64,000 nucleotides of DNA from a virus (lineage: Duplodnaviria; Caudoviricetes): positions 32,001-96,000 of the IMG/VR virus record IMGVR_UViG_3300012344_000001, one strand, 5' to 3'. Shown here piece after piece: positions 1,919 through 62,388 of the stretch; within the stretch, counting starts at the first letter, position 1, and the number at the start of each line of letters is the position of its first letter. The notes beneath the pieces are model-generated. The model saw nothing but the letters and a program-made list of their open reading frames with translations, was not told the origin of the DNA and did no database searches. Both the position numbers and the translations under genes were made by a program.

Positions 1919-4201
1919 TTAGTCAACAACGGTCGCGACAACCGTGTCGATGAACTGGTAGCCGAACATACCGCCCATGCGGAAATGCTTCTGCGCCAGC
2001 ATCATAAGAGCAGACTTGGTGGTAGCAGTACGGGTCGCAGCAACCTTACCGGTATAAGCGCCGTCAACGGGCTCAATGTAGCTACCAGCAGCGAAAGCGC
2101 CGTCAATAACGTCAGTAGACAGTTCGAAATCAAGACCAGGAACCAGCATGATAGCAGTCACGACCTCGCCAGCCTGATAAACATACTGGGTGTAGTCGGG
2201 CCGACCCTCGGGACGACGACCGTCGGGAAGAGTCTCAAAACCGTCATTGATGATGATAGCCGCACGCAGACCAAGGTCGGCGGTAGCAGGCTGGGAACCA
2301 GTGTAGACCTGATAGTTGTCGGCGATGCTGGAATCAAGCGCCTTCAGCATGACGATATCGCCAGCGTGCAGGGTCTTGCCAGTGGGGACAGAAACCTTCT
2401 TGACAAGGTAATCAGGAACGCGAGGATTAGTCGCGCGGCAAAGATAATTCCGTTGTGTTAGTCAAACTAACTTACTGCTTCATCGAGCTCTTTTTCGCAA
2501 AAGCTACTAAAGTCTTACAGCCCTTCACAGCATAGAGGTGCAACGACACCTTTAGACTGCAATCTTTTAACTTAGATTGCATATCTACTCAGGTTGATAG
2601 CAGCATTGTAATCACGGTCGATTGTAAAGCCACACACTTCACATTCGTACACGCGGTCGCCAAGTTTCAAGCTTTGCTTTATGTTTCCACAGCAAGAACA
2701 AGTCTTACTGCTTGGATAGAAACGGTCAGCTTGAACAAATTCAATCCCGCGCCATTCGCATTTATATCGCATCTGTCTGACAAATTCATGAAAACACTGT
2801 TCCTTAATTGCCACACCCAAATGCTTATTTTTCATCATGTCGACAACATCTAAGTCTTCCATTACCACCCTTGCCGGTAGTTTAGTAACCAAAAAATGCG
2901 TCGCTTGGTGAATATAATTCATGCGAATATTTGAAACGCGTGCATACAACTTACGAAGTTTTGCTTCTTCTTTCATAATATTATTCGTCTTTACAAACTT
3001 GTTCCCAACTCTGTTCTGTTCATATTTGCGCGAAATTGAACGCTGTATACGAACTATTTCCTTCTTCAACTTGCGTATCCGACAAGATTTGTTAATATTA
3101 TGAAATACGATTTGGTCTTCGTTAAATTCTGCCACCGCTAAATCTTTCAATCCAAGGTCTATGCCCATGCTTACATCCGTTAATTTAAGTGCTTGATTTT
3201 CGCACATCATGCCAAAGGACAGCATCCACTTACCATTCTTATTTGATATTCGTGGGTTTGTGAACTTGTGTCCTTTCCCCAAAGGCAATTCAAAGTCTGT
3301 TTTATAACGAACCTTACCAATTTTTTCTATTGAAACTTTCATATCTGAAAACCAGATATTTTCACGAATTGGAAATCTTAGCCCGTTCGACTTTCGACTT
3401 TTGAACTTTGGGTAACCGGATTTTTTATTAAAGAAATTTTGGTATGCTTTATCAAGGTCAAGACATATATAGCTAAGGCTTTTATTAGAAACGTCATATA
3501 ACCAATCGTGCAGACCATCGTTCTTTAATGGTTTAAGTAAGCTTATCATTGAAAATCCAGACAGATATTTCCCGCCATTTTTATACAGTTCTTGCTGGTA
3601 TGCCAACATATAGTTCCAGACGAACCTACAAGCACCCGCATGGCTTAACATCTTCTGTTCTTGTTCTTTTGTTGGGTATAACCTTATCTTATAAGATTTA
3701 ATATACATCGTTATCACCTCCTCTTATTAGTTATAAGAGGAGACGGTGGGAACATACCCCACCATGCTTCTTCTCCTTTATCGGGTCGCTACCCCGTGAC
3801 ACTCCGTTTCGGAGTCTTTGCCTTTCGGCAAAGCGCAGACTATATCTTCATCCTTTCGGATGCCCACCACAGTCTTCGCCAATCGCTTGCGAAGCACTTA
3901 GTCGTTGAACCTTCTGCATTTTGCATTATAGCATATTTTACAACGCTTGTCAATACTTTAGTTGTAAATATTTTATGAACAAAATACAGCTTGGCTGCTG
4001 ATTGCCCATTACGGGAAGCGTTTAGGGTTTAACCTTGCGCCATCCGGTATATTTTTTCTACTTTCGTCGCCATCACGCTTAGGATTTAACCTTACGTTGT
4101 GGCTATACCGGCTTTAGGGGTTTCCAGCAATTCAATGGGTATTTTTATCGAACACATTTCTGTGAACGTGACCTATCGAACACGATGGTTCATTAAGCCA
4201 T
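1919..4201 (-). CDS. capsid-associated (decoration/stabilising-like) protein, spliced: exon1 4201-4196 (ATG GCT), exon2 2449-1919
   Basis: GAAAGGA SD before ATG GCT followed by in-frame TAA; removing 4195-2450 gives in-frame MA|NYLCRATNPRVPDYLVKK... continuous with ORF 1919..2350. Confidence 0.8.
2450..2571 (-). ncRNA. putative TnpB omegaRNA scaffold (3' part), coincident with intron 3' end
   Basis: Non-coding segment after tnpB stop ending ...GATGAAGCAGTAAG...ACAACGG; inferred from known tnpB locus architecture. Confidence 0.55.
2572..3708 (-). CDS. tnpB: RNA-guided endonuclease TnpB (intron-encoded)
   Basis: KSYKIRLYPT N-terminus, RuvC GIDLG / VMEDL / DRDYNAAIN, CSCCG..CEVCG Zn ribbon; all catalytic residues present. 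Confidence 0.95.
   Translation of the reverse strand: MYIKSYKIRLYPTKEQEQKMLSHAGACRFVWNYMLAYQQELYKNGGKYLSGFSMISLLKPLKNDGLHDWLYDVSNKSLSYICLDLDKAYQNFFNKKSGYPKFKSRKSNGLRFPIRENIWFSDMKVSIEKIGKVRYKTDFELPLGKGHKFTNPRISNKNGKWMLSFGMMCENQALKLTDVSMGIDLGLKDLAVAEFNEDQIVFHNINKSCRIRKLKKEIVRIQRSISRKYEQNRVGNKFVKTNNIMKEEAKLRKLYARVSNIRMNYIHQATHFLVTKLPARVVMEDLDVVDMMKNKHLGVAIKEQCFHEFVRQMRYKCEWRGIEFVQADRFYPSSKTCSCCGNIKQSLKLGDRVYECEVCGFTIDRDYNAAINLSRYAI
3925..3953 (-). promoter_or_regulatory. sigmaA consensus promoter inside the intron, upstream of tnpB
   Basis: TTGACA-17 nt-TATAAT with extended TG. Confidence 0.8.
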
Positions 4202-4225
4202 AATAATTCAACATCCTTTCTTTAA

Positions 4226-15328: not shown

Positions 15329-17860
15329 TTATTCACCAACCGCTTCGCCAGTATAACTAATCATACTATACCGCTTACCAAGGTAGGCATATTCGCCAGT
15401 CGGATTTTTTACAGGCAGTGCAATTTCCACCTGTTTGATATTTTCAAGTACGCCTTCAGAAGCACACGACCAAATGAACTTCTTGCCGCGCTTCGGATAC
15501 TTTTCGTAGCACAGCTTAACAGCAATGTTCGCAAGTTCCTTTTTGTCTGGACAAAGCTTCAAGCATTCATTCCTATACTTCGAATACACGGAATCCCAGT
15601 TCACATAGTAGTTCATCGCCGATTCCTTATCCCATGCCTTCAGTTCGTCTTTGAATTCATCGTAGCGATGAAGCTTGTTTTCGAATGTGACAAGGTACTT
15701 CATTTCCTTGTTGAAGTCCTTATACACGCCTTCGATTGCTTCGAAGTGTTCAGGCGAAACTTCTACGCTGTCATCAACCATGATTGTGTAGTCAAAAGCA
15801 TCAGCGCGTTTCCACTTGATTTCACGGTCGTGGAACTTTTCAATCATGAACGCAAGCTGATTCATGTTACTACGGGCGCGGCTAAAGCGATATGTGCTTT
15901 TAGTGCGTTCCATTGATTCAAATAGCCTATTGTAGTATTCACCAACATACCGCATGAAGTATGGATACGGTTTTGAATACTTAGCAATCTCGAACGGAAT
16001 CTGCATGATATACCCAGTCTTCGCGAAGTCGATTGCGAACGAATTAACGATTGAAAGAATGTCGACGTAGGTTTCGTATCGCTTCTGTTGTGTTTCCTTC
16101 TTCGTGATTTTGTTGTGATAGCACGTTGCCGCATTTGAATCTTCGCCAATCAGCGAAACAAGTGTCCGTTCAACGAGGCTTGCAATGTTTTCGATTGTGA
16201 TATCTTCTGCAAGCGCAGTAAGCTTTTCGTCGAGATTAAGGACGATTGCACAATCCTTGTCAGCGCCTTCAAGAAATAGTGGTTCGTCCATCAGCAGAAC
16301 CAAATCTCCGTCATAGTCAGCTCCGTTCATTCGCTGTGGACTTGGGCTTTTGCCATTAAGCATACAAGTGTTCACCAAGTGACCACAATATCGTTCAAGT
16401 TCTTCTGTGTTTTTTGCCTTCAGAATAAGATGTTCGCTTTTGCAAATGTGCGGATTTCGTTCAATCGCGTGTTCGCCTTCATAGCCCCTTGCCCAAAATT
16501 CATCGGCTTCAAGCGCGCCCTTTGGATTCTTGTCTCCACCAATCCATTCAAGCATCATGATGATGTCTGGAATCAAAAACTTGTAGCAAGCGCGAAGATA
16601 AATCTTGCCACACTTCATGCTGTCAATGTACTTCTTAACTTGACGCTTCAAGAAGTCGCGGACACTTTGTTCCTTCATCATTTCAGGATTCTTCATAATG
16701 GCGCGCGCATAATTATTAAGCGGCTTAGGATTGTCATTCGCCAAACCAAGGAAGCAATACGTGTAGAACGTGTCGCCATTAACAATCTTTTCAGCCCAGT
16801 TCATCGACTTAGACGCAAGCTTTTGGAATTCTTCGAAGGGCAAATCGAGGTCTTGCAGAATCTGATAGTTGCCGCGCGTATACACCGGTTCCTGTTCTTC
16901 TGTGAAATTCCACTTTGCAACGCCCCAGCAGTGTCCATACTTCTGGAACTTGCTCCAGTAGTTGTCCCAATCTTGGTATGTGCCAGTCTGTTTGAAATAC
17001 TTGAAACCCTTGTACATACTGACCGTCAGCACAATCATTGGTTCGTCAACGGAATGCCACTTTCCCCAGACGTCTTGAATGAATTCAATGTCGTGGTCGT
17101 GATAGTATGTCGTGTAGTCAATTTCGCAGACAAGCCCCTTGATGAACGGAGCGCGTAGCATCATCGTTGTCGGACGTTCTTCCATTCCAATGCGGTCGCG
17201 AACTTCATCAACAAGCGCGGGGTGTATGAAGCCGTGTCCGTCAAAAACATTGATTGGAACGTCTTTATACCCTTCTTCAATGCCGTGTGTCTTCCAAACG
17301 CGCTTTTCGCCAGTTTCCTTGTCGGCGTATTCGCGTTCTTCTTCCACCAACCAACGAAGTTTCTGGTGCGGCACCACCGTTTCGTAGTCGGGCACGACGA
17401 TTGTTTTGGGATACCACCCGTCAAGACAATGACACGAACTAAACATAAGACCGCGATACGCGCACCACTTCGAAAGGACTGTCTTTTTCATTTCCAAGTC
17501 CATGGTGATATGCCTGTCGACTTCTTCAGCAACAGAAGCATCAATGAAACCAAGGATTGCGTTTCTTGTCATGCTGGCGCTTCGTTCGCTCATGACAAAC
17601 TTCACGCCGTTAAGCATGAAGCCGTCAATGACCATGTGTTTGATTTCTTCCTTCTTGCTTTTAGAACCGTTACAGTCGATAAACACAATATATGGCACGA
17701 AGATACCGATTCTTCCGGTAATGTTTCGCAAAAGGCGAAACATCATGTTGTCACCCTGCGAAACGGTATAGTCGGCGTTATTTATGCGCGCGTCATAACC
17801 ACTGTTGATTATTACGCTTGCGGGCAGCTTTCTGACTTTGTAGAGCTTTGGTGCGAACAA
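15329..17860 (-). CDS. YonO-like single-subunit RNA polymerase (RdRP-like double-psi barrel)
   Basis: Catalytic GADYDGD, RNP and RAPFIKG motifs, IDFAKTG. Confidence 0.9.
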   Translation of the reverse strand: MFAPKLYKVRKLPASVIINSGYDARINNADYTVSQGDNMMFRLLRNITGRIGIFVPYIVFIDCNGSKSKKEEIKHMVIDGFMLNGVKFVMSERSASMTRNAILGFIDASVAEEVDRHITMDLEMKKTVLSKWCAYRGLMFSSCHCLDGWYPKTIVVPDYETVVPHQKLRWLVEEEREYADKETGEKRVWKTHGIEEGYKDVPINVFDGHGFIHPALVDEVRDRIGMEERPTTMMLRAPFIKGLVCEIDYTTYYHDHDIEFIQDVWGKWHSVDEPMIVLTVSMYKGFKYFKQTGTYQDWDNYWSKFQKYGHCWGVAKWNFTEEQEPVYTRGNYQILQDLDLPFEEFQKLASKSMNWAEKIVNGDTFYTYCFLGLANDNPKPLNNYARAIMKNPEMMKEQSVRDFLKRQVKKYIDSMKCGKIYLRACYKFLIPDIIMMLEWIGGDKNPKGALEADEFWARGYEGEHAIERNPHICKSEHLILKAKNTEELERYCGHLVNTCMLNGKSPSPQRMNGADYDGDLVLLMDEPLFLEGADKDCAIVLNLDEKLTALAEDITIENIASLVERTLVSLIGEDSNAATCYHNKITKKETQQKRYETYVDILSIVNSFAIDFAKTGYIMQIPFEIAKYSKPYPYFMRYVGEYYNRLFESMERTKSTYRFSRARSNMNQLAFMIEKFHDREIKWKRADAFDYTIMVDDSVEVSPEHFEAIEGVYKDFNKEMKYLVTFENKLHRYDEFKDELKAWDKESAMNYYVNWDSVYSKYRNECLKLCPDKKELANIAVKLCYEKYPKRGKKFIWSCASEGVLENIKQVEIALPVKNPTGEYAYLGKRYSMISYTGEAVGE

Positions 17861-43598: not shown

Positions 43599-43674
43599 TG
43601 GTGACGCACAGAAGGAATTGCAACTTCTATCTCCGCCGTGAGAAGGCGGCATCCTTACTTTAGACGAGTGCGCC
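43599..43674 (-). tRNA. tRNA-Glu (CTC), CCA encoded, atypical T-loop
   Basis: GGCGCAC/GTGCGTC acceptor, CCGCC-TTCTCAC-GGCGG anticodon arm, AGAAG-TTGCAATTC-CTTCT T-arm, ACCA end. Confidence 0.8.
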
Positions 43675-43722
43675 ATGTGTAGGGAAGGGACTTTCGTCCC
43701 TTCCCGCTGGGGATTGCGATGA

Positions 43723-44115
43723 TTACTGATACATCGCGATGGTGGCACGGGCGGCGGCAGCAGCGGCTTCAGCATCCGCAAGTGCCTTCTTAGCCGCAGT
43801 CACGCGGGGGTCTTCAGCGGTGTAGATGGTGACAAGCGTGGCACAGGCAGGTCTGCCGGTATAGACCATCTTGATACCCTCCGAAATCGCATTAAGGACG
43901 GGGGTGGCATCGAAGATTGCGATGCTCTGAATGGGGTCGTGATTCTTGCCAATCGTAAGGTCGTCGTCGTTGACGCGCAGATACGTCCCCTTGGACGTGT
44001 AAACCGCACGATTGCCCTCGGAATCGGACAAAAGAACATAAGTGTTACCACGCTTGCTCTTCACGATAGCACCAGGCAGAACATCCTTCCAGCTCTTCAC
44101 AACATAATCAGTCAT
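43723..44115 (-). CDS. hypothetical protein (strongly biased codons)
   Basis: AAGGAG SD, promoter about 44196-44225, hairpin at 43682-43706. Confidence 0.7.
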   Translation of the reverse strand: MTDYVVKSWKDVLPGAIVKSKRGNTYVLLSDSEGNRAVYTSKGTYLRVNDDDLTIGKNHDPIQSIAIFDATPVLNAISEGIKMVYTGRPACATLVTIYTAEDPRVTAAKKALADAEAAAAAARATIAMYQ

Positions 44116-44263
44116 TTTTCATTTCTCCTTTAATATTAAAGATTTTTATGTTCACAGGCGACCAACCTGTTCACACCGTTTCCTGTTATGCTATTATATT
44201 AGCACACATTTTGGTTTTTTGTCAAGGTCGTGCGGCGGTTAAACCGCACGACCTGTAATTTCC

Positions 44264-44336
44264 TCGCCCATATCGTAGTCGAAACGATGTCTCCAGATTG
44301 AAGGTCTGGCGGCTTAGACCGCTTGCCTAATGGGCG
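44264..44336 (-). tRNA. tRNA-Glu (TTC)-like, atypical (C33, T-A closing T-stem, no CCA)
   Basis: CGCCCAT/ATGGGCG acceptor, GGC/GCC D-stem, CCAGA-CCTTCAA-TCTGG, ATCGT-TTCGACT-ACGAT; own promoter 44355-44383 and hairpin 44226-44253. Confidence 0.7.
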
Positions 44337-44389
44337 ATTTCCAACTGTGCTATTATAATAACACACGCTTTAGATTTTGTCAAGTGCTT

Positions 44390-44813
44390 ACCGCTATCCC
44401 ACTTTCACGGTTTGCAACAGCTAATCCTTGCCGCCTTGAAATGACGGTTTCGCCGGTAGCCCTAACGCATAGCCAATCCACGTTGTTGTGGCGGCGTTGC
44501 AGATAGGCGATTCTACCATGTTAATAATATTCGCACGGATTTCAATGGGCGCTGAACCCTACCTTGGCGGACTGTTTTACAGCACGCTACTTGTCGGGTT
44601 GGTGGCGAGGTTATTTTAGGTGTCACCCGCCATTCCACCATGCGGCTGATGTGCTACTACGCCAAATTATCCACGGCAATCATAGGCGGTCAAGAAATAT
44701 CATTCTGCATGATTGCAACAGCAAATATTTCCCACGGCACAAAGACCGTCATGACTCGCCCCGCGACAAATTCCTTAGACGATGGCTGCTTCTAAGCCTA
44801 CGTTTCAACCGTT
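44390..44813 (-). ncRNA. candidate about 410-nt structured ncRNA
   Basis: Own promoter 44820-44848, no credible ORF, 5' ACGGTT complementary to 3' AACCGT, shares covarying motif with 49690-49950. Confidence 0.55.
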
Positions 44814-44844
44814 GTGATTATAATATCACACCGTTTTGCTTTTG

Positions 44845-45822
44845 TCAATAGTTGTCGCCGTAATCCGGCTGGAAGTTCCAAGAAGTCGACCAAACCTTTT
44901 CGCCGTTATATTCAATCTGGATGAAATCATCTTTGACGTCCAGCACAACAAACGAACGATAAGCGGGCAAATATACGCCTGAAATTGGACTATTGTAATT
45001 CGGCTTCTTGTAGATGGCGCTGGAACCGTACTTCGTGAATACTTCATCGCCCTTGATGTAGAACTTCGACCAAAAGTGCGAACCCTTATTGCCATAGTAA
45101 TTCTGCGTGGGCTTTGGCTTCGCTTCACAGTACGGATAGATAATGTCATCCTTCGTGTCGGCGATAATCTTCACCACCTTGTCGATGGTGCCCTGCAATT
45201 CGGCATAGCGAACATATTCTTCGGGATGGTGTTCGTTATAATAGCCGCAGGACAGATTGACGCTTGCAAGGTCAAACACGGGCGACAGATTGCAGATATC
45301 CGTGAACGAACCCTGCGCCTCGACAAAGCCGTGTTCATCAATGAACTTCTTGAACTGCTTGTTGTCGCACTTATAATAGACCGAATCCTGCTTGCCGCGA
45401 CGGTCAATCTGAATCATGTAGCCTACACCAGCAACGCGACCCTTGATTTCCTGCGCCGCCCGCTTCGTGGATGCACCGCCGACTTCTTCGTCCGTGCTGA
45501 AAAACAGATAAGGACGCTTCCCGCTTTCTTCTGTTGCCTTCAACACCGCCAGAACGGCATAGACGCCACAGCGGTCGTCACCGCCAATGCCCATGGGCGA
45601 ACTTACCTTTTCGCCATCATCGACAATCTTGGTCGGCTGACGCTTATGCACCGTATCAAGATGCGCACAAAGCATCGTCGGGCAGTTGCCGCTGAAAAAC
45701 AGATAGTCGCCACCATTGACCGTGTTTGCCAGACCATAATATTCGCTTAACTGCTGATAAAGCCACGCAAGCAAATCTTCCTTGACGGGCAGGCAAAGTT
45801 TCTTGAAGCCTTCTTTGTTCAT
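44845..45822 (-). CDS. M28/M20-like zinc peptidase with C-terminal SH3-like domain
   Basis: CAHLDTVH, GGDDRCG, DEEVG, IDRRG, FTDI, NLSCGYYNEH. Confidence 0.85.
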   Translation of the reverse strand: MNKEGFKKLCLPVKEDLLAWLYQQLSEYYGLANTVNGGDYLFFSGNCPTMLCAHLDTVHKRQPTKIVDDGEKVSSPMGIGGDDRCGVYAVLAVLKATEESGKRPYLFFSTDEEVGGASTKRAAQEIKGRVAGVGYMIQIDRRGKQDSVYYKCDNKQFKKFIDEHGFVEAQGSFTDICNLSPVFDLASVNLSCGYYNEHHPEEYVRYAELQGTIDKVVKIIADTKDDIIYPYCEAKPKPTQNYYGNKGSHFWSKFYIKGDEVFTKYGSSAIYKKPNYNSPISGVYLPAYRSFVVLDVKDDFIQIEYNGEKVWSTSWNFQPDYGDNY

Positions 45823-46001
45823 TTAATGCACCCCTTCTTGTAGCCGCCAATAATGCCTTCGATTGACGACGCTTCAAAAATGTAGATTTTCCTTGTGATA
45901 TCTTTCAGGTCGCGCTTGGTTTTCAGCAGTTTGCCGCCGTTCGCCAGCAGGTATTCACACATTCGCGGACTGTGGACAATTTTTTCATTCTTAAAAGCCA
46001 A
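45819..46001 (-). CDS. small DUF5659-like protein
   Basis: IVHSPRMCEYLL...KIYIF. Confidence 0.5.
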   Translation of the reverse strand: MAFKNEKIVHSPRMCEYLLANGGKLLKTKRDLKDITRKIYIFEASSIEGIIGGYKKGCIK

Positions 46002-46017
46002 TACACGTCACAACCCT

Positions 46018-46593
46018 TCACACAACGTCGCGCCAGCCAATACGGTCGGTCAACAGCGGCGTCATCACATAGCTTCCACGTTCGCGGGCGTTGTAGCCGT
46101 CCTTGTAAGACCAATCCTTGATGCGTTCGTCGATATAGTCCTTTGCCGCGTCCAGTTCTTCCTTCTTGAACTCCGGCATCACCATGATGCGAACATCTTC
46201 AAAGGTCAGGTCGCCAACAACAATGTCTGCCGACATATTGCCGCCCAGCGTGAAATTCATACAAACGTAATCTTCCACGCCAAGGAAGGACTTGTCGAAC
46301 AGTTCGATGTCATCCTTGGAAAAATCAAGCTTCGTGCCATAACCCGTGCGACAAAGACCGCCGTATTCCGCGCCCAGCTTGCGAAGTTCTGCGTCCGCAA
46401 TAATACAGTGCATTGTGTTGCAGTTCTGTTCGGGAATATAGATTTCCTTTACGCGATATGTGCTACCGTCCTTGTTGGTTTTAAGGAAAATAGCCGCCAT
46501 TCGCGCCGAACTGGCAACCGCATACTTACGCAGTTCGTTATATACCGCCTGTGACATCTTAATGTCGGGTTCTGTTCCGCGATAACTAATCAT
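46018..46593 (-). CDS. JAB/MPN-like protein, apparently catalytically degenerate
   Basis: YRVKEIYIPEQ...FSKDD pattern but no HxH. Confidence 0.4.
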   Translation of the reverse strand: MISYRGTEPDIKMSQAVYNELRKYAVASSARMAAIFLKTNKDGSTYRVKEIYIPEQNCNTMHCIIADAELRKLGAEYGGLCRTGYGTKLDFSKDDIELFDKSFLGVEDYVCMNFTLGGNMSADIVVGDLTFEDVRIMVMPEFKKEELDAAKDYIDERIKDWSYKDGYNARERGSYVMTPLLTDRIGWRDVV

Positions 46594-46817
46594 GCCAGCA
46601 CCTCCCTGTTAATCGGAACAACGGTCATGATTTGCACGTCGTCGCGCACCACAATCGTTCTTCGCAAGCCCTTGGCTTCAAGCCTTGCGTCTGCATCCGC
46701 CCTTGCCGCATCAACCTGTTCGCGGGTAGCGTAAAAGCTACAAGTGTCACAGTTGATGTCGCCAGAAAGAACGGAACATCCGCCCATGCCGTTGCAACCA
46801 AAGCAATCACGTTTCAT
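46590..46817 (-). CDS. small Cys-rich hypothetical protein
   Basis: DCFG...CSVL...CDTCSFYAT; GGAGGA SD; promoter 46859-46887. Confidence 0.6.
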   Translation of the reverse strand: MKRDCFGCNGMGGCSVLSGDINCDTCSFYATREQVDAARADADARLEAKGLRRTIVVRDDVQIMTVVPINREVLA

Positions 46818-46931
46818 TTTTCGTCCTCCTATTCATGCGGTTTAACCGCTATGATACTATAATAGCACACCGTTTAGATTTTGTCAAGCGTTTTTGTATC
46901 CGCCAAAGAATGTCTTTAACTAAAATGGTAA

Positions 46932-48171
46932 TGACATAATCCACCGCCTCTTGGTGTTTGTATTTCTACAATTTCCACATCATTGATTTTGCTTGCACTT
47001 GCGAAGTCTTACAAATCTCCGTGGACATTCAGGACGTACCCCGCCCCAAGATATTGCTTTACGCTAACATCTGTAATCCTTCTTGCAGGATGTTTAACGC
47101 GGCATTTAAGTCGCGCACATGATGCACGCCGCAACAAGGACAATCCCATTCGCGAACAGACAAATCCTTTGTTTTCGGATTCTTCCAACCGCAGAAAGAA
47201 CACAACTGACTTGATGGGAAATATCTATCAACAATATGAAGATTCTTTCCATACCACGCACACTTATATTCTAATTGCCTGCGGATTTCATAGAATGAAA
47301 CTTCCTGTGCCGCCTTTGCGCCAAAATGATTCTTTTTCATTTCAGATACCTTCAAATCTTCTATGCAGATGTCATCATATTTGCGCACAATGTCCGTCGT
47401 CAGCTTGTTGATGTAGTCTTTTCGCTGGTTGGCGACGTGTTCCATAGCCCTTGCAAGTTTAATTCGCGCCTTTTTCCAGTTTTCGCTACCGTTTGTTTTT
47501 CGCGATAGTTCTTTCTGTAGACGTGTAATCTTCTTTTGTGATTGCTTTAGGAACTTAGGATTAGGAACAACTGTTCCATCTGAAAACGTCATTAGATTAT
47601 CTGCTGAATTTAAGTCGATACCGATAGATTTTCCGGTTTTAGGTAGATGTTTTTCGGGGACATCAGTACAACAAACAGATATATAATATTTGTCTGCTGG
47701 TGTTTTAATGACCGTGACAGACAGGATTCTGCCTTCTACTTTTTTGCTGACGCAACATTTCACCATACCTATTTTAAGCAGCTGAACACAGTCATCAAAC
47801 AGGTGAACGCCAGTTCCAAGGACTCGATACGACTGCATTGTCTTTTTTGATTTGAAACGCGGATAGCCAACGCTTTGACCTTTTTTGATTCCACGAAAGA
47901 AATTAGAATAAGCACAATCTAAATCGCGCAATGATTGTTGCAAACCGACGGCGCTAACTTCGCGCAAATATGCAAATTCTTCCGTCTTTTTAAGACTTGT
48001 CAAATCTTTCATGCAGTCAAATCCGCCTATTCGTTTCTTTTCGGTTTCCCATGCAGTTTTGCGCATTTCAAGATAATGGTTATAAACTTTACGACAACAG
48101 CCGAAAGTTCTTTTCATGTGTTCTTTTTGTGCATCATTCGGATAAATGCGGAACTTATATGATTTTTCCGT
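46932..48171 (-). mobile_element. IS200/IS605-type tnpB + omegaRNA, no tnpA and no evident left end
   Basis: tnpB begins 6 nt after the hydrolase stop; non-coding tail ends GGTGGATTATGTCA (IS605-like right end). Confidence 0.7.
47059..48171 (-). CDS. tnpB: TnpB; conserved N-terminus begins at an ACG codon
   Basis: ACG GAA AAA TCA TAT AAG TTC CGC ATT TAT CCG (xEKSYKFRIYP); GIDL, IEDL, RDLNAALNI all intact. Confidence 0.9.
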   Translation of the reverse strand, partial: TEKSYKFRIYPNDAQKEHMKRTFGCCRKVYNHYLEMRKTAWETEKKRIGGFDCMKDLTSLKKTEEFAYLREVSAVGLQQSLRDLDCAYSNFFRGIKKGQSVGYPRFKSKKTMQSYRVLGTGVHLFDDCVQLLKIGMVKCCVSKKVEGRILSVTVIKTPADKYYISVCCTDVPEKHLPKTGKSIGIDLNSADNLMTFSDGTVVPNPKFLKQSQKKITRLQKELSRKTNGSENWKKARIKLARAMEHVANQRKDYINKLTTDIVRKYDDICIEDLKVSEMKKNHFGAKAAQEVSFYEIRRQLEYKCAWYGKNLHIVDRYFPSSQLCSFCGWKNPKTKDLSVREWDCPCCGVHHVRDLNAALNILQEGLQMLA

Positions 48172-48177
48172 TATCTA

Positions 48178-48726
48178 TCATCCCTTCATAATTCCACCGA
48201 AAAATGTATTATCTATTATGGCATACTGGGTATAATTATAAAAATTATGATGCCTTTGAGAACGAAAATAACAAACCCAGTCTGGAATTGTGCATCCATT
48301 GTAAATAATATAGTCCACGGCCTCATATTGCATTTCATTGGGGGTCACGTTCCCCAGCTTATTGCCCAAATCAAACTGCGGGACACCGCCGCTATTCTGT
48401 TTAATTACTTCTTCAATGCTGTTAGGAAATTCGTCAGACTTCACGCGATTCATCACAACGCTTACGACAGCGCGCTGACATTCCATAGATTCGCCACGCG
48501 CTTCCGTCCATAATAGACGCGCCAGCATTTCACGTTCGGTTGACGTTACGAAGAAATATGGCGTCGGTTCCACATAGACTTCCACATAGTCGGTGTGGTG
48601 AAACAGTTCTGTCCGCACGATAATTTCGACTGGAACTTCTTCTTCTGGTGCCAAAAGCGGCATAATTGTAGAAATAAACGTCCAGCAAACACAAATCCAA
48701 AGGAACAGCTTTTTGATGTCTTTCAT
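48178..48726 (-). CDS. cell wall hydrolase (SleB/Hydrolase_2 family)
   Basis: LARLLWTEARGE...VVMNRVKSDEFPNSIEEVI.Q...QF; N-terminal TM. Confidence 0.85.
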   Translation of the reverse strand: MKDIKKLFLWICVCWTFISTIMPLLAPEEEVPVEIIVRTELFHHTDYVEVYVEPTPYFFVTSTEREMLARLLWTEARGESMECQRAVVSVVMNRVKSDEFPNSIEEVIKQNSGGVPQFDLGNKLGNVTPNEMQYEAVDYIIYNGCTIPDWVCYFRSQRHHNFYNYTQYAIIDNTFFGGIMKG

Positions 48727-48742
48727 ATTGTACCCCTTTTGC

Positions 48743-48952
48743 TTAGATGATTTTTGCGCGGGTTTGCACCGGTTCAAAGAAGACGGTTTCAACGTCCCAT
48801 TCGTTCCCAGCATATCGCCCTTCGATGATGCGCACTTCAATATAGCCCTGTTTTAGTCTTGAAGTGCTTGTCACCATGCACTTCACATGATAATCTGTTT
48901 GGGTATACTGTTCGCTCGTATTACACCAAACAATTTGACCGACTTTGAACAC
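48743..48952 (-). CDS. small SH3-like protein (MFKVGQIVW family), tag AKII
   Basis: paralog of 51219 and 62394; ends RAKII. Confidence 0.65.
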   Translation of the reverse strand: MFKVGQIVWCNTSEQYTQTDYHVKCMVTSTSRLKQGYIEVRIIEGRYAGNEWDVETVFFEPVQTRAKII

Positions 48953-48955
48953 CGA

Positions 48956-49173
48956 CTACACCACCTTTGCCTTTAGATAAATCTGCCTTTCAAAACACGA
49001 CACGCGAATATCGGTCAGAACATCGCTGCCGCTTTTTGCGACAAGCTTTTTGTCGACAATCGCATAGTCGCGACGGACGTCGGCATATTTTTCGTCTTTA
49101 CAGCAACGACGCGATAAACGTTCGTGTCGTATACCAGCAAATCACCAATGCGCGGCTTATATCCGTTAGTCAT
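48956..49173 (-). pseudogene. frameshifted small SH3-like tagged gene (or sequencing error)
   Basis: MTNGYKPRIGDLLVYD... shifts frame near 49098 to ...QIYLKAKVV*; span is 218 nt. Confidence 0.6.
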
Positions 49174-49460
49174 GCGACCACCCTTCCCAAAATTTGGTCG
49201 TGGACAATGCGACCCTTCTTTTCGCCATTCTTGCCGATGGAATACCAGCGTCCATCAATCGCCAGAATGTCATAGATTCCCCACGCGCCAGTCTTCGTGA
49301 ACACCTTGTCGCCAACATGGAACTGCGTGGTGTTCTTGACGGGTGCGACGTTGTATCGCTGACCACCGACCTTGATTACGCCATATTCGCCAAGACGTAA
49401 CTTGGCGGCGGCGAAATCGTTTGGAACAGATTCAAAAGATGCAAAAAATTTTTTACCCAT
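49170..49460 (-). CDS. small hypothetical protein (FHVGDKV), ends GRVVA
   Basis: 96 aa. Confidence 0.55.
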   Translation of the reverse strand: MGKKFFASFESVPNDFAAAKLRLGEYGVIKVGGQRYNVAPVKNTTQFHVGDKVFTKTGAWGIYDILAIDGRWYSIGKNGEKKGRIVHDQILGRVVA

Positions 49461-49462
49461 AT

Positions 49463-49672
49463 TTATTCTCCATCATATTCAAAGAAAAAGACTGGTTCGC
49501 CACCCATTGACACAACCCAATCAGGGTTTTCGTTCTGTATTCTGTGGCAGAATTTTTCCGCCTGCTTGCGAAACAAAAAATAGACGTGTGAAAATGTGCC
49601 ATTTTCTGCCGACAATTCGATGTCCCATATTAGAATGTGTAAATCTGCAATAAACGCTTTGATTCTTTTCAT
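49463..49672 (-). CDS. hypothetical protein
   Basis: MKRIKAF ORF with GGTGGT SD. Confidence 0.5.
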   Translation of the reverse strand: MKRIKAFIADLHILIWDIELSAENGTFSHVYFLFRKQAEKFCHRIQNENPDWVVSMGGEPVFFFEYDGE

Positions 49673-49689
49673 ACCGACCACCACAAAAA

Positions 49690-49952
49690 ATTAGAATCGG
49701 CAGGGGTTTAATCGCTATACGGCTTGACGCCCCATCAAACATCCGTATCCGCTATTGCCGTTCGCAACAATGCCCGTCCATGTAGTAATTCGACGGGATG
49801 ATTTCGACACTTTGTATACCGAACGAAACCTTTGCCTGTTGCCGCGAAATATCGGTTTTGGCTTAACGCGCCCCGTGGAACACGCCAGTGTCACGCCCTT
49901 TCGGGCTGGTAGTCGGGTTATTTTAGGTGTCACCGACTATTCCACCGAACAT
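49690..49952 (-). ncRNA. candidate about 260-nt structured ncRNA
   Basis: Own promoter 49959-49987, several hairpins, T-run at about 49685, shares motif GGTGACACCTAAAATAACC with 44390-44813. Confidence 0.55.
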
Positions 49953-49964
49953 GATATTATAATA

Positions 49965-50192
49965 TCACACAACTTGCGCTTTGTCAAGTCCCTTTGCAAG
50001 TTCAAAGAAGCAGGTGTGGCTACCATAATCAAACCAATAATGGTCTGAAAATTCGCACCAGCGGACATAGAACGACTGAAAGTCGTGTTCTTTGCACCAG
50101 TCGCCAATCATATCAAGGGCTTCGTTTACGTTGTCAGCGTTTCCAACGAACGTGCGGTCGCCTTTTCTGTCAAGCCATTCAAGACGCATCAA
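49965..50192 (-). CDS. small hypothetical protein, tag AQVV
   Basis: FYVRW...WFDYGSH; ends KAQVV. Confidence 0.6.
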   Translation of the reverse strand: MMRLEWLDRKGDRTFVGNADNVNEALDMIGDWCKEHDFQSFYVRWCEFSDHYWFDYGSHTCFFELAKGLDKAQVV

Positions 50193-58026: not shown

Positions 58027-61000
58027 TCAAGTGAACTTGGAAGTGACGATATCGTATTCTACAAGGCAATCGCAGTACGTTCCGGTTTGTTCAAAGCCGC
58101 TTTCAGTTTTTCGCCAGTTCGGTCGCTTTTGAAACTTCTTGCAATACAAGATGTCATCTGCCTTAAACTTGTGTTTGCCATAGAATTTTTTGTCCGCTTT
58201 GCACTCTATGGATTTTCCGGTCGCGATACAATACAGCGTAACGCGCGGCGTAAATTTGGTATCTGCCGCCAACACATAGCAGAAGTTTTTCGGAAGTTCG
58301 GGCTGTGTGAACGACACATAGCCAAGATATTCGCGGTCGGCTTGTATGCGTTCTGCCAGCGGCAAATATTCGTCGGGCAAAGACGCTTCAAACGCTTTCA
58401 GTTCAGCGATTCGCGCTTCTTTCGTCTTGGCAACATACGTTTTCTTGTAGCGGTCGAAGAATTTGTCAACGATTGCCAACAGCTTCTTGTTTTTGCCAAA
58501 TTCGCTAAAGAAGCCGATGGTGGTCAGCACCTTGATTTGGCGGGCGTCAACCGTGGTATTTTCGCGAAGATAGACAAGAAGGTCGGCGAACGTGGGAAAA
58601 TCCATGAAGCGGATAGAATAAAGCTGGTCGGCGCAATCGGCAGAAATATATTTGATGGAACCAATTCCTTTGTATATAGTTCTTGTGGATTCATCAAATG
58701 AATATTCCAGCTTCGCGGAACGAAATCTTCCCGGCTTTAGATTTATGCCAAAATATTTCAGTTCCTTCGTTAGCCTTGATGTCTTTTCTTGGTTTCCGTC
58801 GTAAATATTAAATACGACAGTGTAGTAATGAAGCGGATAGTTTTTCTTCAAATACGCTCCATACAGACAATCAAGCGCCGTCGCGGCACCGTGGGGACTG
58901 TTAAACCCATAGTTCATTTGTGCCTGCATATCTGACCACATTTTATCAAATCCGTCGTCTGAACCAGTGTTTTTCTTCCAGTTTTCGCGTAGTCCTTGTT
59001 CGAGTTTTTTGAAATCTTCCGGCTTGATTTTTTTCTTTGAAATCTTCTTTATTAGACCAATAGATTCTGCCGGCGTTACGCCAAGAAACTCGAACATTGA
59101 CATCAGGGATTCTTGGAAGATTACTCTGTGTCCAGTTGGTTCAAGAACTTTGTCTAACGCTTCTGAACCGGTGGTATGTGGCTTTCTCGCAATAAAATCA
59201 TCTCGTTGTGGCGCAAAATTTGGTCGAATTGCACCAACAAACATCGCCAGTTCTTCCATGGAACGCGGCTTATATTTTCGCAACAATGCTGTCGCCCAAT
59301 CTTCGCCAACTTGGTTCAAGGTGCAGGTAATTCCATCGTCAAAAAGTTTCCATGTATCTTCGTCGATATTTTCTAAAAGACGTTTTACGGGCATAATTGG
59401 CTTGCCGATTGATTTGAAAACTTTTGAAATAATGTCCCAAACGCTAACGATAAGATAATCATTTTTAAGATATTTCCACGAATCGGCTTCAGAAGATGTT
59501 ATCATTGCGCACAAGAAATCACCAAGTTTTACAACACCAACCTCTTCTTCGATATCGCAATTCATCAAAAGATGGGCGCATGGATGCACAGACGCGCTTA
59601 CAATCGTACCGACATACTTTTGCGATTCACTAATATAAGCGCCCCATTTTTTGTCGTCGCGATATGCATCAATATCCTTAGACACTTCATTTACTTCGCC
59701 ATATGGTTCACCAGCAGAACGACACACATTCCTAAACGCTTCACTTTCTCCCATAGTACCATACGCCAACATTGGGAAACATCCGTCTTCGCCAAGAAGT
59801 TCGCGACTTGCCTTCACAAAAGGTTCTTGACCGACAACGTTAGCATCGAAATCTGGAAGCGCGTGGTTTTCCAGCAGTCGTGCGGTCGACATAAACCTTT
59901 CGCCGTACATCGGAAGCGTTGTTCTAAGACGATCAATTTGTGTCAAGCCAAGGATTTTATTCAGAATGAACGCACCACACGAATTATGAACAACAATATT
60001 ATTTATTGTGTAACTATGACAACCATCTACTTCCATGTCGTATACCGTGGTCGTCATGTTCTTGTGGATTTCGACAGATGTAACCGGCAAATACCAATAT
60101 TCATCATCTTCTACTAATTTATTTATATTTCGATGATAACCGCCATTTAAGGTTCTTAACTTATAAGATTCGGCGTTTTTATACCCACGAACATCGTCGT
60201 ATGCAAGCCGCACATCTAAAGATACAGGAGAAGAACCGTCTACAATATCATGAAGCGTTTTGTAGGTTCCACAAAGCGATAGCGACGTAGTATCGTAGCA
60301 GACCTTATTATATTCTTTCCCACTGCTACCATCGGCTTTCATCATTCCAATATAAATCCATTTAAGAAGTTCTTTCTTTTGATTCAACAAGTCCTTATTA
60401 AATGTTTTTTGTTTCCCTTTTTTCGACTTGAAGAATTCGGTTGAAAACCACGCGTTCAATATTCCGCTAAACATTGTCATTTGAATAAGGTTTTTGTTTT
60501 TAGCATAATTGTAATATATTGGAATTCCTATTCTTTGCGAAATCTTCTCAAACACATACCTATTGAATCCATTTTTTGTTGTGTTATTTATGGCAAGTCC
60601 TATACCGTTGCTTCTTTGTGTCCATCCGTCTGCATACATAAGTCCGACAAAGGCATTCCACATATAGTCCATAGAAATATACCTTGGTATACGTCTTCTT
60701 ATAAATCCATGTTTCTTACAGTATTTAGAATAGTCTTCCATTGTCTTAAATGGAATATTGTCAAACATATCAGCCAATGATTTTTTCGTTTTGCCGTTCG
60801 TTCCGATTTTTCCATTCACAACACTTAATGCAAATGCCTTGCTTGTAATACCAGCACGACCCAACTCGCTTGGGCTATATGGATATTTCGCTGGGGTTGG
60901 AACAACTTCGTAAATATAATTTTCATCGAATTCATATCCGAAAACATTATATTTATTTAGGTCATATACGATTTCTTCATCGTATTCGTGTTTTAATTTT

Positions 61001-62388
61001 GGACAACAAAGCAAGCTTCCAACAGACAGTTCGTCTGCACAAACGTATTTTCTACACCCATCTTTATAGACAAGTATTTTGTGGTCGGTGGTACAAATAT
61101 TTTTATATTTTTTGTAACTACTTCCTTGGCACCTATATGTAAATTCAATCATGTCTTCGCATATATCATACGACATGGTTTTATTTACCCTGTGCCACAT
61201 TCTATCTTCCGAAAGAACTTCGTCCCCAACAACCACAGAGTCTATTGTCTTCATTGCGTTTGGTGTTCTTATAAGCGCATCTTTTGTAAAACACCCGCGG
61301 CCCGTGCGAGTCAAGACGCCACCATATTTGTTTATAGCCAAGTCGAACAGCTTGTCGTTGAGAAGAAAATAATCAGACGTGTGGACTTCGCTTGTTTCTT
61401 CAATAACCTGCATTTCCTTTCGACATTCGGCGGCATACTTTTTTCTTTCTTCTGGCGTCACTTCATCTTCTTCCATGACCTTGTTAAATTTTTTATTTAC
61501 AATATCCTTCAGAATAACGATTTTTTCTTCTTCCGTCTTGCCTGCGTATATGGTTGGCATCTTGATTGTTCTGTCAATGTTGATGTTTTCGCAGGCGTCG
61601 AACGCAAGCGTGTTATTTATTGCAGAAACAATCTGCGGTCTTGTCAACACGCCCTGTTTTTCAAATCGCGAATACATAACATCAATAGTGGGATAATCAA
61701 GAATAAACGAATCTTCTTCGCCGTAATTTATGCCTTTGCCTTTTAGAAATTCAAGCCGTTCCTTGGCTTGTTCTGGATAAATATAATGACTGTCATTTGC
61801 TGCAATTATATCCAACCCATGTTCTTTTGCGAAGGAAATCGCCTTCTTGTTTATTTCAATCTGATGTTCTTCGTTATGGTTTTGGACTTCAAGGAAAATA
61901 TTTTTGCCAAACTTTTCCACCAATGGAAGAAGAATTTGATTGGTGGCGTCTTCGTCGCGAAGCAACCCCGCCATACATGCCGAAGTAATAAACAGTTCGT
62001 CATCATCAAAATTATCCGTTAAATCAGATAAAAACAGGCGCGGCTTATAATAATACCCGTCCCTGTTTGCGTGGCTACTTGCTTTATTAAGTTTCTTTCG
62101 TGCCACATTTGTCTTGGGAATTAAGATGATATGATAATTTCTATTGTCTTTTTCAAGCGGGTTTGGTACTATATAGCCTTCCATACCGAATTTACAGTCA
62201 AGCCCATACTTGTCACAGACTTCACGCGCTTCGAAGATATCACCACCGCTTCCATGCTCGGTGCTAAATATATTTTTTTCACCAAGTTCAATGGCGCGCT
62301 TGGCATAATCTTCGATTTTAACATTAACATCTGGTGTAAAAATATTTGAAACGTGTGTATGTTTGTGATAATTGTTATACCTATCCAA
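58027..62388 (-). CDS. dnaE: DNA polymerase III alpha subunit with intein
   Basis: PHP HKHTH...TEHG...NDSHY; GRG|intein|S; PDFD; HPCA; KNDYL; YGFNSPH. Confidence 0.95.
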   Translation of the reverse strand: MDRYNNYHKHTHVSNIFTPDVNVKIEDYAKRAIELGEKNIFSTEHGSGGDIFEAREVCDKYGLDCKFGMEGYIVPNPLEKDNRNYHIILIPKTNVARKKLNKASSHANRDGYYYKPRLFLSDLTDNFDDDELFITSACMAGLLRDEDATNQILLPLVEKFGKNIFLEVQNHNEEHQIEINKKAISFAKEHGLDIIAANDSHYIYPEQAKERLEFLKGKGINYGEEDSFILDYPTIDVMYSRFEKQGVLTRPQIVSAINNTLAFDACENINIDRTIKMPTIYAGKTEEEKIVILKDIVNKKFNKVMEEDEVTPEERKKYAAECRKEMQVIEETSEVHTSDYFLLNDKLFDLAINKYGGVLTRTGRGCFTKDALIRTPNAMKTIDSVVVGDEVLSEDRMWHRVNKTMSYDICEDMIEFTYRCQGSSYKKYKNICTTDHKILVYKDGCRKYVCADELSVGSLLCCPKLKHEYDEEIVYDLNKYNVFGYEFDENYIYEVVPTPAKYPYSPSELGRAGITSKAFALSVVNGKIGTNGKTKKSLADMFDNIPFKTMEDYSKYCKKHGFIRRRIPRYISMDYMWNAFVGLMYADGWTQRSNGIGLAINNTTKNGFNRYVFEKISQRIGIPIYYNYAKNKNLIQMTMFSGILNAWFSTEFFKSKKGKQKTFNKDLLNQKKELLKWIYIGMMKADGSSGKEYNKVCYDTTSLSLCGTYKTLHDIVDGSSPVSLDVRLAYDDVRGYKNAESYKLRTLNGGYHRNINKLVEDDEYWYLPVTSVEIHKNMTTTVYDMEVDGCHSYTINNIVVHNSCGAFILNKILGLTQIDRLRTTLPMYGERFMSTARLLENHALPDFDANVVGQEPFVKASRELLGEDGCFPMLAYGTMGESEAFRNVCRSAGEPYGEVNEVSKDIDAYRDDKKWGAYISESQKYVGTIVSASVHPCAHLLMNCDIEEEVGVVKLGDFLCAMITSSEADSWKYLKNDYLIVSVWDIISKVFKSIGKPIMPVKRLLENIDEDTWKLFDDGITCTLNQVGEDWATALLRKYKPRSMEELAMFVGAIRPNFAPQRDDFIARKPHTTGSEALDKVLEPTGHRVIFQESLMSMFEFLGVTPAESIGLIKKISKKKIKPEDFKKLEQGLRENWKKNTGSDDGFDKMWSDMQAQMNYGFNSPHGAATALDCLYGAYLKKNYPLHYYTVVFNIYDGNQEKTSRLTKELKYFGINLKPGRFRSAKLEYSFDESTRTIYKGIGSIKYISADCADQLYSIRFMDFPTFADLLVYLRENTTVDARQIKVLTTIGFFSEFGKNKKLLAIVDKFFDRYKKTYVAKTKEARIAELKAFEASLPDEYLPLAERIQADREYLGYVSFTQPELPKNFCYVLAADTKFTPRVTLYCIATGKSIECKADKKFYGKHKFKADDILYCKKFQKRPNWRKTESGFEQTGTYCDCLVEYDIVTSKFT
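59983..61293 (-). mobile_element. intein (437 aa) with LAGLIDADG-type endonuclease remnants
   Basis: starts CFTKDALI, has TTDHKIL block B, GLMYADG, ends VYDMEV...VVHN followed by Ser. Confidence 0.9.

Follow-up and report, generated by a model that had tools for sequence, protein, structure and literature searches.

Phage non-coding RNAs have been charted far less than phage proteins. The put RNAs of HK022 and the nut/boxB sites of lambda are cis-acting antitermination RNAs. The bacterial and phage Y RNAs YrlA and YrlB, which go with Ro60, join a conserved protein-binding handle to a domain that imitates tRNA (PMC4201824), and GOLLD and ROOL are large, ornate phage-associated RNAs found near tRNA genes (bioRxiv 10.1101/2024.12.08.627333). 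Here, we describe two units of a phage genome in which a hairpin, H1, together with a short second hairpin, H2, makes up a module at the 5' end of two non-coding phage RNAs, D2a and D2b, that differ from each other and are both highly structured. Like GOLLD and ROOL these are long, ORF-free phage RNAs with extensive structure, a kind often found near tRNA genes, but they are far smaller and show no Rfam match to either. The window referred to below is the whole 64,000-nt stretch of DNA that was analysed.

A covarying hairpin common to two transcription units

A sequence-only reading of the window had proposed two minus-strand units, each behind a consensus promoter and lacking credible ORFs. 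Both promoters are near-consensus in sequence (Table 1); that of unit 1 is kept in the related phages L001, L165 and L168, that of unit 2 in L001, L163-L165 and L167-L169, and to judge by these elements both D2 RNAs are made from strong early-type promoters. Stop-free stretches occur in both units, but their frame and length differ among relatives, and hence no ORF is conserved. H1, D2a and D2b match no family in Rfam 15, either in a window scan at gathering thresholds or in E-value scans of 6 kb and of the single units, in line with the earlier reading by eye. The E-value scans returned LSU rRNA models on 44758-44803 and otherwise noise (IMES-2, 12.7 bits, E 0.77; Yar_3; ceN93).

Table 1 Features of the two units and their surroundings (window coordinates)
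Feature	Position	Strand	Description
tRNA-Glu(UUC) gene	44263..44337	-	Own promoter at 44352-44383; directly 3' of D2a; found by ARAGORN and Rfam
D2a RNA, 3' part of unit 1	44386..44642	-	About 255 nt, opened by H1; tRNA-Glu promoter directly 3'
tRNA-Glu(UUC) anticodon-arm look-alike in D2a	44428..44447	-	5-bp stem, 7-nt loop with UUC, start of variable loop
H2 of unit 1	44556..44599	-	Length and stem sequence vary among phages
H1 of unit 1	44600..44637	-	16-nt loop at 44610-44625
Unit-1 5' domain, look-alike of the GTPase-associated centre (GAC) in 23S rRNA	44643..44811	-	About 170 nt: H43, H44, ~109-nt insertion, own closing helix
Unit-1 promoter	44817..44848	-	Near-consensus -35 and extended -10
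Unit 2, D2b RNA	49690..49950	-	About 265 nt; alignment A5
Fold B strand (unit 2 only)	49866..49894 (approximate)	-	Can pair with H1 5' strand and loop start
H2 of unit 2	49895..49906	-	4 bp, GAAA loop, directly after H1
H1 of unit 2	49907..49944	-	3-bp base, AA bulge, 7-position stem; 16-nt loop at 49917-49932
Unit-2 promoter	49956..49987	-	-35 hexamer, 17-nt spacer, extended -10; pattern and consensus scans

A 19-nt core lies at 44609-44627(-) and 49916-49934(-), its only two sites in the window with up to three mismatches tolerated (0 of 100 shuffles gave two such matches), and a 16-nt part of it has no further close match within the complete 108-kb genome. The core is in part palindromic, though imperfectly so. 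The flanks of the core form the stem of H1, a bulged 7+3 bp hairpin with a 16-nt loop. Among 10 distinct copies from 8 related phage genomes or contigs, 96.7% of stem cells are paired and two neighbouring stem pairs vary in a compensatory way (UA/CG and CG/GC/UA), with two compensatory pair changes in the L001 copy of unit-2 H1. The covariation score of 0.296 compares with 0.129±0.028 for shuffled alignments, none of which scored as high (0/500), and with 0.151 at most when the pairing was slid, so that the covariation suspected from the two window copies is borne out. Stem position 2 from the base is no conserved pair, and where a bulge was earlier drawn in the unit-1 stem, a G-U pair is the better reading; the G-U pairs of H1 are workable in the minus-strand RNA sense only. 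H1 is a real covarying minus-strand RNA hairpin, with its covariation limited to two stem positions in closely related sequences.

The core had also been called invariant. It is identical in the two window copies, but unit-1 H1 has two loop transitions in L165 and L168, one of which recurs in a strain contig (strain variants came from four contigs belonging to one study). The loop is still near letter-for-letter the same in both RNAs although their bodies do not align; gene conversion between the copies, instead of selection, could be the source of this near-identity. The best duplexes of the loop with trans targets in the phage genome reached about -13 kcal/mol, none of them prominent.

Both complete genomes hold exactly two H1 copies, and by sequence search the module is restricted to one small clade of gut-type SPbeta-like phages. 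L001 has both units, 4.0 kb apart, and was the sole match in IMG/VR to words conserved in the bodies of D2a and D2b; a 14-mer scan of IMG/VR for distant homologues gave chance matches only. No homologue was found among cultured phages by blastn or in the Thomasclavelia phages TR-TP1 and TR-TP2 by covariance model, and a search with the flanking peptidase led only to the L001 contig and to one distant phage, which lacks the RNA. Candidates that were set aside are L112, with 17/19 core positions matching on a gene end, and the chance-level 19-mer matches of L162 (a different inverted repeat), L166, L170 and L171. The searched literature held no description of D2 RNAs.

Composition of the two RNAs

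By sequence likeness, the first ~170 nt of unit 1 are a member of a widespread phage family of RNAs mimicking the GTPase-associated centre (GAC) of 23S rRNA (H42-H44, E. coli 1051-1108), found neither in Rfam 15 nor in the searched literature, and have its closing helix, H43 copy, H44 loop and variable insertion. The H43 copy is identical to E. coli 23S 1059-1089 at 27 of 31 positions (blastn, E 4e-5), two Rfam LSU models match here with 24.1 and 20.5 bits (bacterial LSU, 24.1 bits, E 9e-7), and the 23S likeness was attained by 0/200 shuffles. An H44-like word follows 109 nt past H43; in 24 other GAC-mimic loci this insertion spans 51-269 nt. Reading the insertion revealed no copy of the sarcin-ricin loop, and beyond the GAC part the rRNA likeness of unit 1 is at chance level only. 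Outside rRNA genes, 46 IMG/VR contigs have this architecture, and the window domain, flanked by the promoter and D2a, is likewise outside any rRNA gene. The closing helix varies in sequence from locus to locus and covaries over 24 loci, with a mean of 5.6 bp versus 2.85 in swapped controls and 6 bp in the window. None of 36 other loci of the family has the H1 module.

These results change the picture of the long unit, which had been taken for one RNA with complementary, paired ends. The end sequences (ACGGTT/AACCGT) are not kept in relatives, and the 5' end closes the rRNA-like domain instead. Unit 1 is, as far as sequence comparison goes, a composite of the GAC-mimic 5' domain and a separate RNA, D2a, which in L165 and L168 follows the same promoter on its own. 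As some phages have the domain fused to D2a and others lack it, the build is modular.

In an alignment of four phages (A4, mean identity 83%) the helices proposed for D2a pair in 96.9% of cells, compared with at most 44.5% when slid; the predicted structure of its body rests on these four similar sequences. L001 and L165 build the H2 stem from another complementary strand pair, and L168 has the shortest one. D2a also has a near-copy of the anticodon stem-loop and first variable-loop bases of tRNA-Glu (RF00005), identical at 18 of 20 positions to nt 27-47 of the L001 phage tRNA-Glu (0/500 shuffles attain the score) and alignable with E. coli gltT and phage tRNAs. Its loop is invariant in the four phages, and the stem has one one-sided change. 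In contrast to tRNA-Glu, D2a has no cloverleaf, acceptor stem or T-arm, and both ARAGORN and the Rfam tRNA model pass over it and detect the true tRNA-Glu gene only. The long unit does adjoin a tRNA gene, but a single one was detected in the window and not the several previously supposed. All tRNAs found in related contigs are tRNA-Glu, each downstream of D2a.

The D2b fold, computed from seven sequences with H1 enforced (A5), has 65 pairs in 9 helices, with 97.6% of cells paired and compensatory change at 13 pairs; its score was attained by 0/500 shuffles. The closing pair of H2 covaries, as GC in three sequences, AU in three and GU in one. An alternative helix, fold B, is chosen by unconstrained RNAalifold; in every sequence except L001, its predicted stability exceeds that of the hairpin fold by 6-12 kcal/mol. 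Its long helix has one-sided changes only, and it can be regarded as a candidate, not a proven structure. The 3' end of D2b passes, without a terminator in a simple consensus scan, into the RBS of the next small ORF. No imitation of rRNA or tRNA is recognisable in D2b, for which 32/200 shuffles attain the E. coli 23S score; the corresponding count for D2a is 142/200. By-eye 23S matches of H1, D2a and D2b (near 896-918, 2045-2061, 2555-2625 and 2857-2877) were no better than shuffled controls.

The clear common part of D2a and D2b is the 5' ~65 nt only, and the similarity of their bodies is not significant (attained by 4 to 258 of 300 shuffles, depending on the pair). The idea that the common motif makes them one RNA family stands for the covarying hairpin but extends to this short 5' part alone, in one small phage clade.

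A decoy reading and its alternatives

Since look-alikes of a ribosomal site and of the tRNA-Glu arm occur on one RNA, the D2 RNAs are probably of decoy type and form a new, narrowly distributed family, with a function that we infer from these likenesses. Of the roles first suggested (sponge, anti-defence RNA or ribozyme), that of a sponge or decoy gains from the parts that resemble rRNA and tRNA, whereas the evidence is neutral on a ribozyme. The H1 loop would serve as a sequence-specific handle recognised by the same partner in both RNAs, which would most likely be a phage or host protein, and the bodies would present imitations of translation-machinery RNAs. Such particles would act off the ribosome, as decoys or sponges of host factors that recognise the imitated RNAs, for example a nuclease or modifying enzyme directed at tRNA-Glu. 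That H1 is a common recognition handle on modular decoy RNAs is the likeliest of the readings considered, and one that we propose tentatively. A bolder version would make D2 a new kind of modular phage decoy, a hairpin handle recruiting one partner, with interchangeable arms copying host translation RNAs (in D2a the 23S rRNA GAC and the tRNA-Glu anticodon arm), that neutralises host defences against tRNA-Glu or the ribosomal factor-binding site while the phage's own unusual tRNA-Glu genes replace damaged host tRNA; this is speculative and, taken whole, unlikely. We count against the decoy reading that D2b lacks a recognisable imitation and that no handle partner was found among the neighbouring small proteins, for which Pfam and PHROG scans gave no informative family. 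The Ro60 (TROVE) gene is absent from the complete genome, although control genomes match, and RtcB is absent as well.

Alternatively, the H1 module might work in cis, as part of a leader to which the transcription or translation machinery responds: a put/nut-like antitermination signal after two early promoters or, in unit 2, a switch between hairpin and fold B by which the downstream genes are tuned. Both copies stand a few to ~30 nt past the predicted start in those cases that have no fused extra domain, and the module consists of two adjacent stem-loops. Unit 2 runs without a terminator up to an RBS, which also fits a leader, and its hairpin fold has a competitor, fold B, that excludes it and is predicted to be about as stable or more stable. 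The L001 loop shows complementarity to the RBS region of the gene that follows, but the window, L165 and L168 do not share this. The alternative helix lacks compensatory change and is weak in L001. Moreover, unit 1 has no ORF behind it but a promoter and then a tRNA gene, the simple consensus scan predicted no terminator-like site on the minus strand of 43600-50000 that would need suppression, and the 12 other consensus promoters of the window lack the module. Given also that a leader leaves ~200 nt of covarying D2b body unexplained, we consider this explanation improbable, if worth keeping in view.

Another possibility is that D2a and D2b are paralogues that have diverged within a single RNA class, perhaps of ribozymes or ligand binders. 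The H1 loop would then make a tertiary contact inside a common folded core, around which the outer arms vary. Both bodies hold a few short words in the same order, one half of the loop is A-rich, as helix-docking sequences can be, and the outlying hairpins differ in length, a trait of other large structured RNAs too. The non-significant body similarity argues against it; no covarying loop partner was found, and no compensating change could be placed for the loop transitions of L165 and L168, which leaves it distinctly unlikely. Processing offers a further reading: H1 as a hairpin resembling a tRNA acceptor and ending in ACCA, cut by host tRNA-processing enzymes so that fused domains are separated and RNA ends set. 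A-CCA indeed comes next after the 3' strand of the seven-position stem in every copy, the RNAs are located in a tRNA region, and in this phage the upstream domain either stays fused or is cut off exactly here. However, the CCA is internal, with its predicted pairing partner at the 5' base of H1, the 16-nt loop bears no resemblance to a T-arm, H1 is invisible to ARAGORN and the Rfam tRNA model, and L165 and L168 have nothing upstream to remove; we give this reading little credence. Largely refuted, and hardly credible any longer, is a role of the repeat as DNA (a dimeric-repressor operator, or an end hairpin of IS200/IS605 type including tnpB) or as a source of small peptides. The partly palindromic core and the tnpB gene between the two copies had pointed to the former, but L165, L168 and one strain do not keep the palindrome intact, the G-U pairs suit RNA only, and the H1 copies do not bound the tnpB unit. 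That element (46821-48275) is missing in strain contigs that still have both hairpin units, and relatives without tnpB between the copies retain both too. As for peptides, 72-codon and 42-codon frames begin in or near the core, but the frames are not conserved and all three are closed in the unit-2 copy.

Comparison with known systems

A small clade maintains two strongly promoted, well-folded RNAs with a common recognition hairpin, and D2a in this phage brings ribosomal-site and tRNA-arm imitations together on a single transcript. If the RNAs are decoys, they would connect the widespread phage GAC look-alikes with phages having only tRNA-Glu genes and would indicate a host defence aimed at tRNA-Glu or the ribosomal factor-binding site. 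Sister phages with and without the rRNA-like domain on the same RNA amount to a natural experiment on each part.

In layout, the H1 module resembles put, nut and boxB in its two copies per phage, in stem-loops that come soon after early promoters, and in conserved loops on varying stems. Here, however, no terminators are predicted by the simple consensus scan, there is no boxA-like element, and H1 stands at the head of long structured RNAs, with no more than a tRNA gene behind one of them. As in other GAC-mimic phage RNAs, the unit-1 domain adjoins a tRNA gene, but it is fused where those are free-standing, and H1 and the D2 RNAs lie outside that family. The D2 RNAs differ from YrlA and YrlB with Ro60 in that their genome has no Ro60/TROVE gene and they have no Rfam Y-RNA match; the D2 handle is a 5' hairpin and not a stem formed from two RNA ends, and D2a imitates the anticodon arm only, with no tRNA body. 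What they have in common with these Y RNAs is the modular plan, a handle combined with a tRNA imitation.

A hairpin module on the 5' side of two structured RNAs

The two units are structured RNAs, driven by promoters and devoid of ORFs, that share a hairpin module on the 5' side; one of them, D2a, bears a copy of a tRNA-Glu arm and in this phage also a domain that looks like rRNA. The 19-nt core pointed out in the sequence-only reading, around which the hairpin is built, occurs exactly twice in the window, both times on the minus strand, which carries all genes in this part of it. A third copy is not found in the window even at up to three mismatches, and a 16-nt part of the core has no further close match in the whole 108-kb genome. 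Each copy is preceded by a consensus promoter, as claimed in that reading (a consensus scan gives 14 near-perfect -35/extended -10 promoters in the window), and its judgement that credible ORFs are absent was borne out: the stop-free stretches of both units vary in frame and length among relatives, and the units therefore encode no conserved peptides.

Coordinates of the RNA units and other features in the window
Feature	Position (nt)	Strand	Remark
RAGATH-18 RNA	2472-2531	-	46.3 bits
Group I intron	3816-4205	-	85 bits
Promoter-like site	3925-3953		consensus type, within the inserted loop of the intron
RNA polymerase	15329-17860	-	843 aa; Pfam RdRP family match
TTTAA-loop hairpins	~44000-44010; 44229-44256; 46838-46852		short, GC-rich, no T-run
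tRNA-Glu(UUC)	44263-44337	-	CCA not encoded
Unit 1	44386-44811	-
D2a RNA	44386-44642	-
tRNA-Glu arm copy	44428-44447		5-bp stem, 7-nt loop holding UUC
A-CCA, unit 1	44600-44603	-	end of hairpin 3' strand
Core, unit 1	44609-44627	-
rRNA-like domain	44643-44811	-
LSU model match	44758-44803		Rfam bacterial and archaeal models
tnpB (IS605 OrfB) element	46821-48275		between units 1 and 2
Unit 2 (D2b RNA)	49690-49950	-
A-CCA, unit 2	49907-49910	-	end of hairpin 3' strand
Core, unit 2	49916-49934	-
DNA polymerase III alpha-type gene	58027-62388	-	PHP, finger and NTPase domains; split by an intein splicing domain

Ten distinct hairpin copies align without gaps and fold into a 3-bp base, a two-A bulge, a seven-position stem and a 16-nt loop, with 96.7% of cells paired. 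Two adjacent stem pairs vary in a compensatory manner (UA/CG and CG/GC/UA), and the covariation score of 0.296 is reached by 0 of 500 shuffles (0.129 ± 0.028), with all slid controls far below it. The covarying stem proposed from the sequence holds for these two pairs, but stem position two is not conserved as a pair, and the supposed bulge in the unit 1 stem is instead a G-U pair. The core had been called invariant; its loop is nearly but not strictly so, with A-to-G and C-to-U changes in the unit 1 homologues of two related metagenome contigs (L165 and L168) and C-to-U alone in one strain contig. Both changes are transitions, and wobble would preserve pairing to a fixed partner; no pairing partner for the loop was located within the RNAs or the phage genome. 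A short second hairpin follows immediately, its closing pair covarying in unit 2 and its length and stem sequence variable in unit 1.

All copies of the shared hairpin close their 3' strand with A-CCA, which pairs with a 5' UGG and, across the AA bulge, with a U. A T-box-type UGGN bulge holding a tRNA acceptor end looks similar, possibly by coincidence. In the related phage L001, nine loop bases form a perfect complement to the U-run and Shine-Dalgarno region just ahead in the gene directly after unit 2 (L001:2610-2632, plus strand); the window, L165 and L168 lack this complementarity.

Bodies of the two RNAs

The 5' domain of unit 1 aligns by blastn with E. coli 23S rRNA positions 1059-1089 (27 of 31 bases, E 4e-5), at a score reached by no shuffle. 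This GTPase-associated-centre (GAC)-like segment pattern occurs outside rRNA genes in 46 IMG/VR contigs, often adjoining tRNAs, with a common architecture in which a closing helix precedes H43, and an insertion varying from 51 to 269 nt separates H43 from the H44 loop; the closing helix varies in sequence between loci but keeps its complementarity. In the window the shared hairpin begins two bases beyond the end of this domain. The domain is absent from L165 and L168, where the same promoter leads directly into the hairpin, with the same RNA on its 3' side. Hence, unit 1 is a fusion of two parts, one belonging to the GAC-mimic family and the other a separate RNA, D2a. The complementary ends earlier noted for the long unit are not conserved in relatives.

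For D2a, 96.9% of cells in the proposed helices pair across four phages (at most 44.5% when slid); covariation says little here, given that the body is very similar in all four. Its short arm is identical at 18 of 20 positions to the tRNA-Glu anticodon arm of L001, a score reached by 0 of 500 shuffles, and E. coli tRNA-Glu aligns equally well; D2a has no rRNA likeness beyond chance. tRNA-Glu is the sole tRNA type found by ARAGORN in the whole genome and related contigs, and each phage tRNA-Glu follows D2a with its own promoter. In the tRNA-Glu of this phage, anticodon-loop position 33 is C where U is almost universal, and the anticodon stem is unlike the bacterial type.

D2b, modelled from seven sequences with the hairpin enforced, has nine helices and 65 pairs, with 97.6% of cells paired and compensatory change at 13 pairs, which no shuffle matches and slid controls fall far below; on this model D2b is a well-folded RNA of approximately 265 nt. 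Unconstrained, RNAalifold chooses another fold for the first 100 nt, in which a conserved strand further downstream pairs with the hairpin's 5' strand and with the first part of the loop. In most sequences (L001 is the exception) this alternative has a predicted stability advantage of 6-12 kcal/mol, but it shows one-sided changes only. Covariation backs the hairpin fold in unit 2, and the alternative may serve as a switch.

Distribution and genome setting

The homologue search suggested by the sequence-only reading recovered relatives from IMG/VR, metagenome contigs and sequencing runs: an exact-word scan of IMG/VR gave one phage with both units (L001, 105 kb), a scan of metagenome contigs gave six further contigs (L163-L165 and L167-L169) that belong to the same clade, and close strains are present in four sequencing runs, all from one study. 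No further homologues came from searches with shorter words, with words conserved in the bodies, with a neighbouring protein or with a covariance model of the module, nor from blastn against cultured phages. Both complete genomes hold exactly two module copies, and as far as these searches reach the module is restricted to one small phage clade.

The phage genome is complete (108 kb, with terminal repeats). Among cultured phages, those of Thomasclavelia ramosa stand closest (39% amino-acid identity) and Bacillus SPbeta-like phages come next, so the host is probably a gut Firmicute; Thomasclavelia and Enterocloster are the hosts of the closest cultured relatives. The RNA polymerase that the phage encodes is a single-subunit enzyme of the YonO type, identified by its relatedness to yonO of Bacillus SPbeta and to the 'RNA-dependent RNA polymerase' genes that Thomasclavelia phages carry. 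The tnpB element is polymorphic, its 1453 nt being replaced by 155 other letters in strain contigs of two runs. The recurrent TTTAA-loop hairpins sit between transcription units, immediately upstream of promoters, and could serve as a phage-specific terminator or as a processing site.

Possible roles and likeness to known RNAs

Hardly a letter of the loop differs between two RNAs whose bodies are otherwise unrelated, and the simplest reading is that one partner, common to both, would recognise it. The imitated pieces of translation RNAs suggest decoys or sponges acting off the ribosome. Neighbouring proteins were uninformative as to the partner, and Ro60 and RtcB genes are absent. The module could alternatively be a cis-acting leader or antitermination element; unit 2 is without a terminator and continues into the ribosome-binding site of a small ORF. 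It could also be a processing signal, or an internal tertiary element of a core common to both RNAs. Clear sharing between D2a and D2b is limited to the first ~65 nt, body similarity by local alignment is not significant, and a few short words recur in the same order across both bodies. Action at the DNA level is largely excluded by the strain data and by the G-U pairs, which in the hairpin and the remainder of unit 2 are compatible with minus-strand RNA only.

At gathering thresholds, and in permissive scans of each unit by itself, neither unit fits an Rfam 15 family, in agreement with the failure to match them by eye, and the hairpin module and D2 RNAs have no counterpart in Rfam 15 or in the literature searched. 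Together they are a new, narrowly distributed family. In kind, they belong to a general type already known, that of structured phage RNAs incorporating look-alikes of cellular ones.
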